DNA of 64,000 nt from Escherichia coli (GTDB lineage: Bacteria > Pseudomonadota > Gammaproteobacteria > Enterobacterales > Enterobacteriaceae). Of this stretch, positions 7,145 through 20,412 are shown piece by piece. The position numbers and the translations under genes are program-made. Under the pieces are notes generated by a model, which saw only the letters and a list, made by a program, of their open reading frames with translations, was not told where the DNA came from and searched no databases. The DNA is taken from assembly GCF_003334405.1 (NCBI RefSeq), contig NZ_QOWM01000008.1; one strand, given 5' to 3'. Each line of letters starts with the position of its first letter. Within the stretch, counting starts at the first letter, position 1.

Positions 7145-7795
7145 TCAGAAAATGCGCTCCTGATGCACCCATACCGCTGCTTCCACGCGAGACTTGAGCT
7201 TCATTTTCTTCAGCATGTGCTTGACGTGCACTTTTACTGTGCTTTCGGTGATATCCAGGCGGCGGGCAATCATCTTGTTCGGCAAACCCTGGGCAATCAG
7301 CTTGAGAATATCGCGCTCGCGTGGGGTTAACTGGTTAACATCGCGCTCAGTAGTGGCACGGTTAGCGCGCAAGCTGGCGGCCAGAACAGGCGTTAATGCT
7401 TCGCTTAATACCATTTCGCCAGCAGCTGCCTGATGCAATGCTTTCAGCAGATCTTCCGGTTCCATATCTTTTAACAGATAGCCATCCGCGCCGCGTTTCA
7501 GTGCGGTGACCACATCTTCTTCATGGTTAGAGACGCTGAATACCACAATGCGCCCTGAGAGGGACTTTTCGCGCAGTTTATCCAGCGTTTCCAGACCGTT
7601 CATGCCGGGCATATTGAGATCTAACAGGATCAGATCGGGATCAAGAGACTCCGCCAGTTCAATACCCTGTTCGCCATTACTCGCTTCGCCAACCACGGTG
7701 ATATCTGGTGCCATACTGATAAGCTGTTTTACGCCAGTTCGCAGCATCGGGTGATCGTCAATCAGCAGGATAGTAGCCGGTTCCTGATTACTCAT
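7145..7795 (-). CDS. narL: Nitrate/nitrite response regulator NarL, 216 aa
   Basis: ORF track 7145..7909 trimmed to [21 protein letters not shown]...; receiver plus LuxR-type HTH domains. Confidence 0.95.
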
Positions 7796-9584
7796 GGGTA
7801 TCTCCTTGGACGTCTGTGAAAGTTTTTTCGGGAATAAAGGTGACCACCACTTCGGTGCCACCTGATTCACGACGGCGGACGCGGCAATCGCCTCGTAAAC
7901 TTTGCGCACGATCGCGCATTATTATCATGCCGTAGTGATTGCTGCGGATGGCATTTTCAGGCACGCCGCAGCCGTTATCCTGGACGGTCAGTTTGACCTG
8001 ATTATCGTTTTGCGCCACCGTCACCACGACTTCACTCGCTTGCGAATGTTTGAGGGCGTTACTTAATGCCTCACGGGCAATTTGCAACAAGTGGATTGCC
8101 TGATGCGAAGGCACCAGGCGAGGCGGCAATTGATAATCCAGCTTCACCGGGAAGCCAAATTTGGCGCTGTACTCTTCGCAACTCGCCTCCAGCGCCGGAC
8201 GTAATCCAGGCTCGGTGAGCTGCAAGCGGAATGTGGTGAGCAATTCACGCAACTGCGCCCAGGATGCATTCAGTTCGTTACGGATCTGACTTAACAGTTC
8301 GCGGCTGCTTTCTGGCAGCGCATCGCCCTGCATCTGTAAACAACTCACCTGCATCTTCATGCAAGAGAGAGATTGGGCAATAGAATCATGCAGTTCGCGC
8401 GCAATGGTGGCACGCTCTTCCATCACGATCAACTGTTGCTGACGTTCCTGATGGCGATCCAGCGCCAGCGTGGCGGTGAGTTGTTCAACCAGGGTATCCA
8501 CCAGTTGTTGTTGATCATGGCTAAGATGACGCCCCTGCGGCAGGGTCGCCAGCAAAATACCGTACTGCGTATGAGAGTCAGCCAGCCGCCACTTCAGGGT
8601 CGTGCCGCGATCACCAACGGGTAATACGCCGCGCGGGCAGAGCTGGCAGCCTTTATCATCACAAGTCATATCTGGCTGGCAGGTAAACTCCTGATGATTC
8701 TCTTCATCATCAGTGTCATACACCCGCAATTCGATATCACGTAGCAGGGTTAAATTCTGTAAGCCGTTGAGTACAGGTGACAGGCGTTCACACAGCGGGG
8801 CGCGGGAATGCAAACGGCGGTTAGCCTGCCATAAAAAAGAGAGGATCTGATTTTTATGCTCCAGCCCGGCGGTTTTCTCCTGAACCCGCTGCTCAAGTAC
8901 GGCATAACTTTCGGCCAGTTCTGCAGACATATTGTTCAACGCAGTTCCAAGCATCGCCATTTCGTTGCGCCCGCTGATGTTTGCGCGTTGGGTAAAATCG
9001 CGATGACTGACGGCACTCGCCATTGCCAGCAGTTGCCGCCACGGTTGTAGCAGTCGCGCCCGCAACCAGATAATAGTGAACACCAGTAAAAGTGCCATAA
9101 ATACCGCCATTACCCGATGGACCAGTACCACTGTCTCGATGCGCATTTCCGTGGTGCGGTCAAAACCAGATACCAGTTGATCAAGCCCGGCAACAAACTG
9201 GCTGACATCCGCTGACACCGTTTCTCGGTTTTGTGCACGCATCAGCGCAGGGATCAGTTCATTACGCCAGTAATCTTGTAAACCCTGTAATTGCGCCAGT
9301 TGTCCGTCTCGTTCTGCTGCTCGAGTCAACTCGGCGCTAAATGCCGTTTGTTCCATCTCTTTAATTAAGGGCTTGTCTTTCTCGCTTAATGGCACTGCCG
9401 CCAACAGACGGTAACTTTGCATGCGCAGCGATCCCGCTTTGTTGATCGCATGGGCGCTGCCCTGAACGCCTTGCACCAGCCAGCCAGAAACCGCCATCCC
9501 TGCCAGTCCAATAGCAGTAGAAAGCAACACAATAAGCGCAACCTGATTAACCAGGGTGAGCGGAGAGAGACAACGTTTAAGCAT
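7788..9584 (-). CDS. narX: Nitrate/nitrite sensor histidine kinase NarX, 598 aa
   Basis: ORF track; overlaps narL start by 8 nt. Confidence 0.95.
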
Positions 9585-9849
9585 GTAAACCTCTTCCTTC
9601 AGGCTTTAAATGAGCAATAACCTTAATGAATGTGACGATACATTCTGGAATGGCAGTATTCTCGGCTATTGGCTGAAGTATACCCATACCCGGAAAGAGT
9701 TACTCCTTATTTGCCGTGTGGTTAGTCGCTTTACATCGGTAAGGGTAGGGATTTTACAGCACCGTGAAAAATCTCATAATTTTTATGAAGTCACTGTACT
9801 CACTATGGGTAATGATAAATATCAATGATAGATAAAGTTATCTTATCGT

Positions 9850-9863
9850 TTGATTTACATCAA
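9850..9863. promoter_or_regulatory. FNR box TTGATttacATCAA in the narK promoter
   Basis: Perfect FNR consensus palindrome about 60-70 bp upstream of narK; NarL-heptamer-like TACYYMT motifs nearby. Confidence 0.7.
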
Positions 9864-9922
9864 ATTGCCTTTAGCTACAGACACTAAGGTGGCAGACATC
9901 GAAACGAGTATCAGAGGTGTCT

Positions 9923-11314
9923 ATGAGTCACTCATCCGCCCCCGAAAGGGCTACTGGAGCTGTCATTACAGATTGGCGACCGGAAGATCCTGCGTTCTGG
10001 CAACAACGCGGTCAACGTATTGCCAGCCGCAACCTGTGGATTTCCGTTCCCTGTCTGCTGCTGGCGTTTTGCGTATGGATGTTGTTCAGCGCTGTTGCGG
10101 TGAACCTACCGAAAGTCGGCTTTAATTTTACGACCGATCAGCTATTTATGTTGACTGCGCTGCCTTCGGTTTCTGGCGCGTTATTACGTGTTCCATACTC
10201 CTTTATGGTTCCTATCTTCGGTGGTCGTCGCTGGACGGCGTTCAGCACCGGTATTCTGATTATTCCTTGCGTCTGGCTGGGTTTTGCCGTGCAGGATACC
10301 TCCACGCCTTATAGCGTCTTCATCATCATCTCTCTGCTATGCGGCTTTGCTGGCGCGAACTTCGCATCCAGTATGGCAAACATCAGCTTCTTCTTTCCGA
10401 AACAGAAGCAGGGTGGCGCGCTGGGTCTGAATGGTGGTCTGGGAAACATGGGCGTCAGCGTCATGCAGTTGGTTGCTCCGCTGGTGGTATCACTGTCGAT
10501 TTTCGCAGTATTTGGTAGCCAGGGCGTCAAACAGCCGGATGGGACTGAGCTGTATCTGGCGAATGCGTCCTGGATATGGGTGCCGTTCCTTGCCATCTTC
10601 ACCATTGCGGCGTGGTTTGGCATGAACGATCTTGCTACCTCGAAAGCCTCCATCAAGGAGCAGTTGCCGGTACTCAAACGGGGTCATCTGTGGATTATGA
10701 GCCTGCTGTATCTGGCAACCTTCGGCTCCTTCATCGGCTTCTCCGCGGGCTTTGCAATGCTGTCAAAAACGCAGTTCCCGGATGTTCAGATTCTGCAATA
10801 CGCTTTCTTCGGGCCGTTTATTGGTGCGCTGGCGCGTTCTGCAGGTGGTGCATTATCTGACCGTCTGGGCGGAACTCGTGTCACGCTGGTGAACTTTATT
10901 CTGATGGCGATTTTCAGCGGCCTGCTGTTCCTGACCTTACCGACTGACGGGCAGGGCGGAAGCTTCATGGCGTTCTTCGCGGTCTTCCTGGCGCTGTTCC
11001 TGACAGCTGGGCTGGGTAGTGGTTCCACTTTCCAGATGATTTCAGTGATCTTCCGTAAACTGACAATGGATCGCGTGAAAGCAGAAGGGGGTTCTGACGA
11101 ACGTGCGATGCGTGAAGCGGCAACCGACACGGCGGCGGCGCTGGGTTTCATCTCTGCGATTGGCGCGATTGGTGGCTTCTTTATCCCGAAAGCGTTTGGT
11201 AGCTCGCTGGCATTAACGGGTTCGCCAGTCGGCGCAATGAAGGTATTTTTGATTTTCTATATCGCCTGCGTAGTGATTACCTGGGCGGTATATGGTCGGC
11301 ATTCTAAAAAATAA
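9923..11314 (+). CDS. narK: Nitrate/nitrite transporter NarK (MFS), 463 aa
   Basis: ORF track 9917..11314; start placed at MSHSSAPERATGAV... Confidence 0.95.
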   Translation: MSHSSAPERATGAVITDWRPEDPAFWQQRGQRIASRNLWISVPCLLLAFCVWMLFSAVAVNLPKVGFNFTTDQLFMLTALPSVSGALLRVPYSFMVPIFGGRRWTAFSTGILIIPCVWLGFAVQDTSTPYSVFIIISLLCGFAGANFASSMANISFFFPKQKQGGALGLNGGLGNMGVSVMQLVAPLVVSLSIFAVFGSQGVKQPDGTELYLANASWIWVPFLAIFTIAAWFGMNDLATSKASIKEQLPVLKRGHLWIMSLLYLATFGSFIGFSAGFAMLSKTQFPDVQILQYAFFGPFIGALARSAGGALSDRLGGTRVTLVNFILMAIFSGLLFLTLPTDGQGGSFMAFFAVFLALFLTAGLGSGSTFQMISVIFRKLTMDRVKAEGGSDERAMREAATDTAAALGFISAIGAIGGFFIPKAFGSSLALTGSPVGAMKVFLIFYIACVVITWAVYGRHSKK

Positions 11315-11724
11315 ACCGTTACTCGTCATACTTCGGGTTACATGTGCTGCGGCTGCGTTCATTCACCCCAGTCACTTACTTTAGTAAGCTCCTGGGATTC
11401 ATTCACTTGCCGCCTTCCTGTAAACCGAATTATATAGAGTAAAATATTTGATTATCCTTTGCGCGGCATGATGTCGCGCTTTTTTTATGCGTCATTTAGT
11501 TACAACATACTAATGTTATATGGTTTATTTCGCCGGATTTCATTAAGAGCCATTAATATGTTACCCATGGGGAATACTCCTTAATACCCATCTGCATAAA
11601 AATCTTAATAGTTTAAATAACTACAGGTATAAAACGTCTTAATTTACAGTCTGTTATGTGGTGGCTGTTAATTATCCTAAAGGGGTATCTTAGGAATTTA
11701 CTTTATTTTTCATCCCCATCACTC

Positions 11725-11738
11725 TTGATCGTTATCAA
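11725..11738. promoter_or_regulatory. FNR box TTGATcgttATCAA in the narG promoter
   Basis: Consensus FNR palindrome about 95 bp upstream of the narG ATG; long AT-rich upstream region consistent with known NarL/IHF-bound narG control region. Confidence 0.7.
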
Positions 11739-11829: not shown

Positions 11830-14800
11830 ATGAGTAAATTCCTGGACCGGTTTCGCTACTTCAAACAGAAGGGTGAAACCTTTGCCGATGGGCATGGCCA
11901 GCTTCTCAATACCAACCGTGACTGGGAGGATGGATATCGCCAGCGTTGGCAGCATGACAAAATCGTCCGCTCTACCCACGGGGTAAACTGCACCGGCTCC
12001 TGCAGCTGGAAAATCTACGTCAAAAACGGTCTGGTCACCTGGGAAACCCAGCAGACTGACTATCCGCGTACCCGTCCGGATCTGCCAAACCATGAACCTC
12101 GCGGCTGCCCGCGCGGTGCCAGCTACTCCTGGTATCTTTACAGTGCCAACCGCCTGAAATACCCGATGATGCGCAAACGCCTGATGAAAATGTGGCGTGA
12201 AGCGAAGGCGCTGCATAGCGATCCGGTTGAGGCATGGGCTTCTATCATTGAAGACGCCGATAAAGCGAAAAGCTTTAAGCAGGCGCGTGGACGCGGTGGA
12301 TTTGTTCGTTCTTCCTGGCAGGAGGTGAACGAACTGATCGCCGCATCTAACGTTTACACCATCAAAAACTACGGCCCGGACCGTGTTGCTGGTTTCTCGC
12401 CAATTCCGGCAATGTCGATGGTTTCTTACGCATCGGGTGCACGCTATCTCTCGCTGATTGGCGGTACTTGCTTAAGCTTCTACGACTGGTACTGCGACTT
12501 GCCTCCTGCGTCTCCGCAAACCTGGGGCGAGCAAACTGACGTACCGGAATCTGCTGACTGGTACAACTCCAGCTACATCATCGCCTGGGGGTCAAACGTG
12601 CCGCAGACGCGTACCCCGGATGCTCACTTCTTTACTGAAGTGCGTTACAAAGGGACCAAAACTGTTGCCGTCACACCAGACTACGCTGAAATCGCCAAAC
12701 TGTGCGATCTGTGGCTGGCACCGAAACAGGGCACCGATGCGGCAATGGCGCTGGCGATGGGCCACGTAATGCTGCGTGAATTCCACCTCGACAACCCAAG
12801 CCAGTATTTCACCGACTATGTGCGTCGCTACACCGACATGCCGATGCTGGTGATGCTGGAAGAACGCGACGGTTACTACGCTGCAGGTCGTATGCTGCGC
12901 GCTGCTGATCTGGTTGATGCGCTGGGCCAGGAAAACAATCCGGAATGGAAAACTGTCGCCTTTAATACCAATGGCGAAATGGTTGCGCCGAACGGTTCTA
13001 TTGGCTTCCGCTGGGGCGAGAAGGGCAAATGGAATCTTGAGCAGCGCGACGGCAAAACTGGCGAAGAAACCGAGCTGCAACTGAGCCTGCTGGGTAGCCA
13101 GGATGAGATCGCTGAGGTAGGCTTCCCGTACTTTGGTGGCGACGGCACGGAACACTTCAACAAAGTGGAACTGGAAAACGTGCTGCTGCACAAACTGCCG
13201 GTGAAACGCCTGCAACTGGCTGATGGCAGCACCGCCCTGGTGACCACCGTTTATGATCTGACGCTGGCAAACTACGGTCTGGAACGTGGCCTGAACGACG
13301 TTAACTGTGCAACCAGCTATGACGATGTGAAAGCTTATACCCCGGCCTGGGCCGAGCAGATTACCGGCGTTTCTCGCAGCCAGATTATTCGCATCGCCCG
13401 TGAATTTGCCGATAACGCTGATAAAACGCACGGTCGTTCGATGATTATCGTCGGTGCGGGGCTGAACCACTGGTATCACCTCGATATGAACTATCGTGGT
13501 CTGATCAACATGCTGATTTTCTGCGGCTGTGTCGGTCAGAGCGGGGGCGGCTGGGCGCACTATGTAGGTCAGGAAAAACTGCGTCCGCAAACCGGCTGGC
13601 AGCCGCTGGCGTTTGCCCTTGACTGGCAGCGTCCGGCGCGTCACATGAACAGCACTTCTTATTTCTATAACCACTCCAGCCAGTGGCGTTATGAAACCGT
13701 CACGGCGGAAGAGTTGCTGTCACCGATGGCGGACAAATCCCGCTATACCGGACACTTGATCGACTTTAACGTCCGTGCGGAACGCATGGGCTGGCTGCCG
13801 TCTGCACCGCAGTTAGGCACTAACCCGCTGACTATCGCTGGCGAAGCGGAAAAAGCCGGGATGAATCCGGTGGACTATACGGTGAAATCCCTGAAAGAGG
13901 GTTCCATCCGTTTTGCGGCAGAACAACCAGAAAACGGTAAAAACCACCCGCGCAACCTGTTCATCTGGCGTTCTAACCTGCTCGGTTCTTCCGGTAAAGG
14001 TCATGAGTTTATGCTCAAGTACCTGCTGGGGACGGAGCACGGTATCCAGGGTAAAGATCTGGGGCAACAGGGCGGCGTGAAGCCGGAAGAAGTGGACTGG
14101 CAGGACAATGGTCTGGAAGGCAAGCTGGATCTGGTGGTTACGCTGGACTTCCGTCTGTCGAGCACCTGTCTCTATTCCGACATCATTTTGCCGACGGCGA
14201 CCTGGTACGAAAAAGACGACATGAATACTTCGGATATGCATCCGTTTATTCACCCGCTGTCTGCGGCGGTCGATCCGGCCTGGGAAGCGAAAAGCGACTG
14301 GGAAATCTACAAAGCCATCGCGAAGAAATTCTCCGAAGTGTGCGTCGGCCATCTGGGTAAAGAAACCGACATCGTCACGCTGCCTATCCAGCATGACTCT
14401 GCCGCTGAACTGGCGCAGCCGCTGGATGTGAAAGACTGGAAAAAAGGCGAGTGCGACCTGATCCCAGGTAAAACCGCGCCACACATTATGGTCGTAGAGC
14501 GCGATTATCCGGCGACTTACGAACGCTTTACCTCTATCGGCCCGCTGATGGAGAAAATCGGTAATGGCGGTAAAGGGATTGCCTGGAACACCCAGAGCGA
14601 GATGGATCTGCTGCGTAAGCTCAACTACACCAAAGCGGAAGGTCCGGCGAAAGGCCAGCCGATGCTGAACACCGCAATTGATGCGGCAGAGATGATCCTG
14701 ACACTGGCACCGGAAACCAACGGTCAGGTAGCCGTGAAAGCCTGGGCTGCCCTGAGCGAATTTACCGGTCGTGACCATACGCATCTGGCGCTGAATAAAG

Positions 14801-18610: not shown

Positions 18611-18674
18611 GTAAACGTGGTGCCATCGGGCAAAATTAGCTCGGAGTAACAGGTTTTGATTATTTAAGGAAGCG

Positions 18675-19410
<736 letters not shown>

Positions 19411-19569: not shown

Positions 19570-20412
19570 TTAAAGAATAATCGTTCGATTACCGTAAACA
19601 AAGACGCGCTGTGCCAGTACTTTGTATAGTGCACGACTTAAGACGTTTTTCTCGACGTCACGACCTGCGCGCATCATATCTTCAGCTGTGTAGGTATGAT
19701 CGACATGAATAACGTCCTGCATGATGATTGGGCCTTCGTCCAGATTGTCATTCACATAGTGAGCGGTTGCGCCAATAATCTTCACACCACGTTCATAGGC
19801 CTGGTGATAAGGACGTGCGCCAATAAACGCTGGCAGGAATGAATGGTGAATATTGATGATCTTATTCGGGAAGCGTGCCACAAATTCCGGCGTTAATACC
19901 CGCATATACTTCGCCAGCACCACGTAGTCAGGTTGATAAGCATCAATGGCATCCGCCATCTTTTGATCGTGCTCGTTGCGGGTTAACCCTTCATGGCTTA
20001 CCAGCTCAAACGGAATATCAAAACGCTCAACCAGAGAACGTAAAGTATCGTGGTTACCAATAACTGCCGCGATTTCGACATCCAGGCCGCCGTAATTGGC
20101 TTTCATCAACAAATCGCCAAGGCAATGCGCTTCTTTAGTGACCAGAATCACTATCCGGCGACGACCGGCAGGATTCAGCTCACGCACGGAGCCTTCTGGC
20201 AATGCGCTATCGAGATCCGCCAGCAGGGTGGAATCATTAAAAATCCCTTCCAGTTCCGTGCGCATAAAAAAGCGCCCGGTACGGTGATCAACAAATTCAT
20301 TGTTCTGTACGATATTTAACTCGTGCTTGTAGCAAATATTGGTAATACGTGCGATCAGACCTTTTTGGTCCGGACAAATAGTACGCAGAACTTTACGTTG
20401 GAGTGAATGCAT
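19570..20412 (-). CDS. purU: Formyltetrahydrofolate deformylase PurU, 280 aa
   Basis: ORF track; ACT domain plus formyltransferase domain. Confidence 0.95.
   Translation of the reverse strand: MHSLQRKVLRTICPDQKGLIARITNICYKHELNIVQNNEFVDHRTGRFFMRTELEGIFNDSTLLADLDSALPEGSVRELNPAGRRRIVILVTKEAHCLGDLLMKANYGGLDVEIAAVIGNHDTLRSLVERFDIPFELVSHEGLTRNEHDQKMADAIDAYQPDYVVLAKYMRVLTPEFVARFPNKIINIHHSFLPAFIGARPYHQAYERGVKIIGATAHYVNDNLDEGPIIMQDVIHVDHTYTAEDMMRAGRDVEKNVLSRALYKVLAQRVFVYGNRTIIL

Follow-up and report, generated by a model that had tools for sequence, protein, structure and literature searches.

A perfect FNR palindrome at -41.5 of the Escherichia coli narK promoter and the conserved spacing of its upstream elements

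The divergent region between narX and narK contains a perfect FNR-type palindrome, which raises the question of whether FNR binds it, which of the two genes it serves and how it is arranged relative to the heptamers bound by NarL. We addressed this question in a stretch of 64,000 nucleotides (64 kb) of E. coli DNA, here called the window. The intergenic region covers positions 9585-9922 (338 bp), exactly the interval delimited by a sequence-only reading of the same DNA; it is bounded by the start codon of narX (minus strand, ending at 9584) and by the narK ATG at 9923. The genes on its two sides are:

7788-9584, minus strand: narX, 1210 bits against the NCBIfam NarX equivalog
9923-11314, plus strand: narK coding sequence, the regulated gene, with matches to NarK-family models

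Downstream of narX lies narL, and narG starts at 11830. Positions 9300-10300 are 100% identical to E. coli K-12 MG1655, where the RefSeq labels are narX and narK, and this stretch was found in 5416 of 5426 complete E. coli genomes. The chromosome is K-12-like here, and the locus is the E. coli narK promoter of the literature, reportedly treated by Bonnefoy and DeMoss in 1992, by Kolesnikow et al. in 1992 and by Li, Kustu and Stewart in 1994. An Rfam scan of 9300-10200 (E up to 1) matched zero families, and hence no known RNA element is present in that interval. A mechanically called open reading frame of 91 aa (9850-10125, plus strand) was dismissed as an artefact; its start coincides with the palindrome's TTG, and it runs across part of narK in a different frame.

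The FNR-like sites and the core promoter elements are as follows, with promoter positions counted from the putative narK start:

9850-9863, no strand assigned: primary FNR site TTGATTTACATCAA, a perfect palindrome with its centre at 9856.5 (-41.5)
9812-9825, no strand assigned: second FNR-like site ATGATAAATATCAA, one mismatch, with its centre at 9818.5 (-79.5)
9885-9890, plus strand: -10 element TAAGGT, starting 21 nt after the FNR box
9898, plus strand: putative narK transcription start (A), from the centre 9856.5 plus the published -41.5, giving a 25-nt leader
9914-9917, plus strand: narK Shine-Dalgarno GAGG, before the ATG at 9923; CAGAGGTG is kept in related loci

The exact FNR consensus that the sequence-only reading had placed at 9850-9863, between narX and narK, is indeed there, with both the coordinates and the genes correct. 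It is the best FNR match in the window: a symmetrised matrix made from 62 ChIP-supported sites (Table S6 of Myers et al. 2013, PMC3688515), with narK left out, gave it a score of 20.48 (maximum 21.62), and without nirB, whose site is identical, in the training set, the score was 20.36 and still ranked first. A palindrome of this kind may arise by chance or be bound by another protein of the CRP/FNR family, such as CRP. In 60 random 64-kb Markov sequences, the mean maximum FNR score was 14.4, and one of the 60 reached a comparable value (20.7). Furthermore, another perfect palindrome of the window, its third (TTGATAAGCATCAA, 19933-19946), lies inside purU and is listed as a predicted site (1287368, PatSer 14.21) without a ChIP-seq peak or nucleoid-protein overlap (Myers et al. 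2013, PMC3688515), which shows that even a perfect site may go unused. Against chance, exact TTGAT-N4-ATCAA sites occur three times in the window compared to 0.08 expected from dinucleotide-preserving shuffles (0 of 100 shuffles reached three), and the expectation for 338 bp is only ~4e-4. As for the binding protein, TTGAT half-sites are those of FNR, and TGTGA is that of CRP.

Published occupancy and expression data speak to the same point. Table S6 of Myers et al. 2013 (PMC3688515) lists TTGATTTACATCAA at 1277107 (narX/narK) with a PatSer score of 17.06 and an ln p of -16.52, at an FNR ChIP-seq peak; among the ChIP-supported sites of that study, yfiD alone scores higher (17.25), and nirB, with the same 14-mer, is joint second. 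In the main table of the same paper, narK is directly activated by FNR from a site at -41.5, and in its supplements narK is "Activated" in the wild type versus the fnr deletion and differentially expressed between aerobic and anaerobic conditions, with significantly different sigma70 occupancy at narX/narK under the two conditions (PMC3688515). The 14-mer, its genome coordinate and the position of -41.5 all match that study, and the curated NarL heptamers correspond one to one; the site does not differ from the narK promoter of the literature.

Conservation was assessed by a NarK scan of 100,044 species genomes, which gave 80 loci, 46 of them with a divergent upstream narX; the remaining loci were mostly narU-type paralogues or remoter homologues. 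The 46 loci come from more than 12 genera, including Escherichia, Citrobacter, Pseudocitrobacter, Enterobacter, Klebsiella, Raoultella, Kluyvera, Kosakonia, Cedecea, Pluralibacter, Phytobacter, Trabulsiella, Lelliottia, Rahnella and Limnobaculum. In all 46, the top FNR match is a perfect TTGAT-N4-ATCAA. Most carry TTGATTTATATCAA, from which E. coli is one spacer base apart. Over the 43 non-Escherichia loci, mean identity to the E. coli bases is 0.93 in the FNR box and 0.83 in the -10 element, compared to 0.52 over the entire region. Among 5418 E. coli records, 4553 carry the 72-bp core (9826-9897) without any change, and two sampled variants leave the palindrome untouched: both are changed at 9877 (in the spacer between box and -10) and at 9790 (just upstream of the core), and one also at 9827.

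The spacing toward narK is equally constrained. TAnnGT follows the box at 21 nt in 41 of the 47 sequences (the 46 loci plus the window) and at 22 nt in three more, and positions T1, A2, G5 and T6 of the -10 element are at least 95% conserved. The narK ATG lies 65-69 bp from the box centre in most of the loci; the exceptions are five with 72-91 bp (a Citrobacter, three Rahnella and Limnobaculum). Invariance across genera at a fixed distance to the -10, together with the position under an FNR ChIP-seq peak upstream of an FNR-activated gene (Myers et al. 2013, PMC3688515), makes a chance palindrome, or one bound by a different family member, so improbable that we give this explanation hardly any weight.

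The locus has what characterizes a class II FNR promoter, a TTGAT-N4-ATCAA site with its centre near -41.5 and a properly spaced -10. No recognizable -35 element was found for narK, as expected of a class II activator-dependent promoter. For the same reason, a simple sigma70 scan misses the narK promoter; its only call in the region, TTTACA-16-CATAAT at 9753-9780 (plus strand), was set aside, since its -35 and the middle of its -10 are unconserved in other genera. The published sigma70 ChIP-seq peak (1277023, 1277031) converts to ~9766-9774, roughly 128 bp upstream of the putative narK start, unlike at narG, where the sigma70 peak (1279025) is no more than 5 bp from the inferred start. The peak in the narK region may combine the unresolved signals of the two divergent promoters, narK and narX, or may reflect the nearby, unconserved TTTACA-16-CATAAT. 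The narK start at 9898 is a prediction from the published -41.5 and the conserved spacing of the -10. Taken together, we regard 9850-9863 as the primary FNR operator of narK, in a class II FNR-dependent promoter co-activated by NarL, with a probability of about 97%.

Since the region is shared by two divergent genes, the palindrome could also, or instead, serve narXL, with FNR repressing narX. Repression of narX by FNR in vitro is attributed to Takahashi et al. 1994 by Ravcheev 2007. However, 272 bp separate the centre of the palindrome from the start codon of narX, and the spacing is fixed to the -10 and start codon of narK, whereas the differences in intergenic length (299-376 bp) fall on the narX-proximal side. 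Moreover, a narXL clone with 226 bp upstream of narX successfully supplied NarXL; it ends at 9810 and is therefore without either FNR-like site. A function at narX is thus unlikely and would be secondary at most, and narK remains the gene to which we assign the operator.

The palindrome had also been described as flanked by TACYYMT-like NarL heptamers. Such heptamers are present, enriched and curated, but all of them are upstream of the palindrome (-214 to -67), and the flanking is therefore one-sided. Exact TACYYMT is found at 9681-9687 (plus), 9701-9707 (plus) and 9805-9811 (minus), that is, three times in 338 bp versus ~0.17 expected (Poisson P ~7e-4). A NarL matrix trained on sites of other operons (cut-off of at least 5 bits) matched 13 times in the region, a count equalled or exceeded in 0.19% of 338-bp windows. 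Hence, both weight-matrix scans proposed in the sequence-only reading came out in its favour, the FNR site scoring clearly above threshold and ranking first in the window and the NarL matches being enriched in the region, and the comparison with curated collections agreed as well, both for the FNR site (Myers et al. 2013, PMC3688515) and for the b1223 NarL heptamers (PMC2718512). The curated b1223 list stems from the MotifAdjuster supplement (PMC2718512), via RegulonDB and CoryneRegNet, and goes back to the footprinting work of Li, Kustu and Stewart 1994. All ten entries map uniquely within 9681-9834 (-214 to -67), with starts at 9681, 9701, 9718, 9735, 9741, 9792, 9797, 9805, 9815 and 9828. 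The entry at 9792, CACTGTA, is flagged as spurious and for removal in the list itself (PMC2718512), and nine are retained:

9681-9687, plus strand: NarL heptamer TACCCAT (-214), exact, curated, score 9.03, identity 0.96
9701-9707, plus strand: NarL heptamer TACTCCT (-194), exact, curated, score 9.31 (maximum), identity 0.82
9718-9724, 9735-9741 and 9741-9747, minus strand: three weak curated heptamers (-177, -160 and -154), scores 4.35-7.27
9797-9803, plus strand, and 9805-9811, minus strand: NarL pair TACTCAC (-98) and ATGGGTA (-90), curated, scores 6.36 and 9.03
9815-9821 and 9828-9834, minus strand: two weak curated heptamers (-80 and -67), scores ~5.5, identity 0.35-0.40

The variants of the -194 heptamer seen elsewhere, TACCCCT and TACCTCT, still satisfy TACYYMT. 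The weak heptamers of 9718-9747 are unconserved outside Escherichia (identity 0.23-0.35), and in the pair, identity is 0.91 at the 9797 heptamer and 0.57 at the 9805 heptamer. Measured from their ends, the consensus heptamer nearest to the FNR palindrome is 39 bp upstream of it and the nearest weak curated one (9828-9834) 16 bp upstream; from 9835 to 9922, no heptamer reached 5 bits. A 7-2-7 pair is typical of targets shared by NarL and NarP and is not needed for NarL-only targets. No canonical 7-2-7 pair exists at narK: the sole inverted pair, 9797-9803/9805-9811, is not canonical because its spacer is 1 bp, and narK is not among the 7-2-7 promoters of the curated list (PMC2718512). This absence fits the NarL-specific, NarP-independent control reported in Salmonella (PMC7038943).

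Closer inspection of the aligned loci revealed that the upstream elements, too, keep their distance to the FNR box. TACTCAY is 53 bp from the box in 47 of 47 sequences, TACCCAYACC is 169 bp away in 40 and 170 bp away in two of the 47, and a conserved GTGAAA is 86 bp away in 40 of the 47. A further conserved element lies in the middle of the region:

9764-9786, no strand assigned: conserved block GTGAAAAAT...TTTTTA (~-134 to -112), with columns at least 90% conserved

In most genera, the block reads GTGAAAAACCACAC..TTTTTT. It is a natural candidate for binding of IHF or Fis or for a bend element. A published IHF ChIP-chip region converts to 9683-10236 of the window, and a role of Fis at narK is ascribed to Kolesnikow 1992 by Ravcheev 2007. 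The IHF consensus WATCAANNNNTTR, with one mismatch allowed, has no match in 9764-9786, and the block could therefore bind a factor new to narK or bend intrinsically; at narK, we infer IHF only tentatively. The only match of the IHF scan in the region (9843-9855, minus strand) merely reuses the TTGAT half-site and was discarded.

Judged from the alignments, only the -41.5 box, the -10 element, the heptamers at -214, -194 and -98 and the one central block are under clear constraint at fixed spacing, and several of the curated weak NarL heptamers, as well as the -79.5 site, appear to be lineage specific. The spacing across genera and the conservation of three to four of the nine retained heptamers were computed here and are absent from the literature examined. 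Invariant spacing would support a stereospecific upstream complex. It is imaginable that the ~200 bp from -214 to the -10 element, with blocks at fixed distances in more than 12 genera and only 23-35% identity between the blocks, form a nucleoprotein complex of NarL, a bend and FNR, in which GTGAAAAAYCACA...TTTTTT (9764-9786) would be contacted by a factor new to narK or be intrinsically bent; we consider this model speculative and rather improbable as a whole.

The FNR-like site at 9812-9825 had escaped the sequence-only reading. Its matrix score is 13.66, the eighth in the window, and it is centred 38 bp upstream of the primary site. A literature search for an FNR site at -79.5 of narK found nothing relevant, and such a site is presumably listed in curated databases. 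Two FNR dimers might bind in tandem, at -41.5 and -79.5, and the upstream site would then be a functional FNR operator and not just part of the NarL heptamers. The single mismatch, the score and the distance of 38 bp between the centres are consistent with this, as is the published FNR ChIP-seq peak (1277080/82; Myers et al. 2013, PMC3688515), which converts to ~9823-9825 of the window, between the two sites; however, ChIP-seq resolution is too coarse for sites 38 bp apart. The -79.5 site is also missing from the published high-quality list (threshold ln p -10.75), and it shares sequence with the weak curated NarL heptamer 9815-9821, which it overlaps. Furthermore, it is kept in E. coli and E. 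albertii only (identity 0.49 over the 43 non-Escherichia loci) and is degraded in a close relative, Escherichia sp. MOD1, in which the -41.5 site is intact, as it is throughout. A tandem arrangement is therefore possible but doubtful, and the site at -41.5 remains the primary operator. If the -79.5 site is used, it may have arisen within Escherichia and modulate anaerobic induction there.

The neighbouring narGHJI promoter is built alike. It has a perfect FNR palindrome (TTGATCGTTATCAA, 11725-11738) at -41.5 and consensus heptamers at 11562, 11575 and 11585 (~-211 to -188) and at 11681-11687 (~-89), and the narK layout of -214/-194, -98/-90 and a central block mirrors this arrangement. At narG, the NarL regions at -195 and -89 plus IHF are essential according to the literature; an IHF site is documented for narG, whereas for narK it is presumed. 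What narK adds is the Escherichia-specific -79.5 site and the placement of the -98/-90 heptamers 1 bp apart. The nirB promoter has the identical 14-mer at -41.5 and is likewise co-activated by NarL. In contrast to narK, it carries a single NarL/NarP 7-2-7 (pair 6a/6b) near the FNR site and responds to NarP; the narK heptamers are dispersed, not of the 7-2-7 type and extend out to -214, and narK does not respond to NarP in Salmonella (PMC7038943).

Besides narG, the other strong FNR matches of the window (30133-30146, 44447-44460 and 44492-44505) are also ChIP-supported sites, belonging to adhE/ychE and, in two cases, ompW. An FNR-like sequence with one mismatch, ATGATTTTTATCAA at 654-667 (score 14.62), is not among the published high-quality sites in the part of that list examined. 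The offset between U00096.2 coordinates and the window is 1267257 for FNR sites up to narG and 1267435 from purU on, which means that the window is short by exactly one 178-bp unit relative to U00096.2. A 178-bp tandem repeat is present beside tyrT/tyrV at 18670-19050 in 2.1 copies, with tRNA-Tyr genes at 19032-19116 and 19326-19410 (minus strand). The missing unit reflects either a difference between strains or the collapse of the repeat.

In the established model, which accounts for all features of the promoter, dimeric [4Fe-4S]-FNR binds TTGATTTACATCAA at -41.5 in anoxia, in place of a -35 element, and would recruit RNA polymerase to TAAGGT by class II contacts, with transcription starting near 9898. 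In the presence of nitrate, NarX phosphorylates NarL, and NarL-P binds the upstream heptamers, of which those at -214, -194 and -98/-90 are conserved. NarL-P and an architectural bend in the block from -134 to -112 may then co-activate narK in the manner of the adjacent narG promoter. Class II FNR/CRP promoters and narG are the basis on which the protein contacts and the geometry of the loop are predicted. Consistent with this scheme, the levels of narK mRNA and of NarS, a small RNA from the narK 3' UTR, drop drastically in Salmonella when fnr or narL is mutated, but not when narP is (PMC7038943), and according to a review, FNR and NarL both control narK directly (PMC8139620).

Just past the narK stop codon, the Rfam family V_AS5 (Vibrio antisense RNA AS5) was matched below threshold at 11322-11444 on the opposite (minus) strand, with 30.9 bits compared to a gathering cut-off of 96 and an E value of 1.7e-4; this is the position of NarS in the literature (PMC7038943).

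In sum, the palindrome is a real, strongly conserved and ordinary FNR site that was already known. That narK is controlled by oxygen and nitrate has been known from the early 1990s onward. The value of the case is mainly one of calibration: reading the letters by themselves gave the right coordinates, genes and regulators, and the ChIP data, the activation by fnr and the curated NarL sites justify taking this textbook anaerobic and nitrate control as a positive control. The cross-genus analysis adds a modest refinement to a known promoter, whose FNR site ties nitrate uptake and nitrite export by NarK, together with the production of NarS, to oxygen limitation and nitrate.
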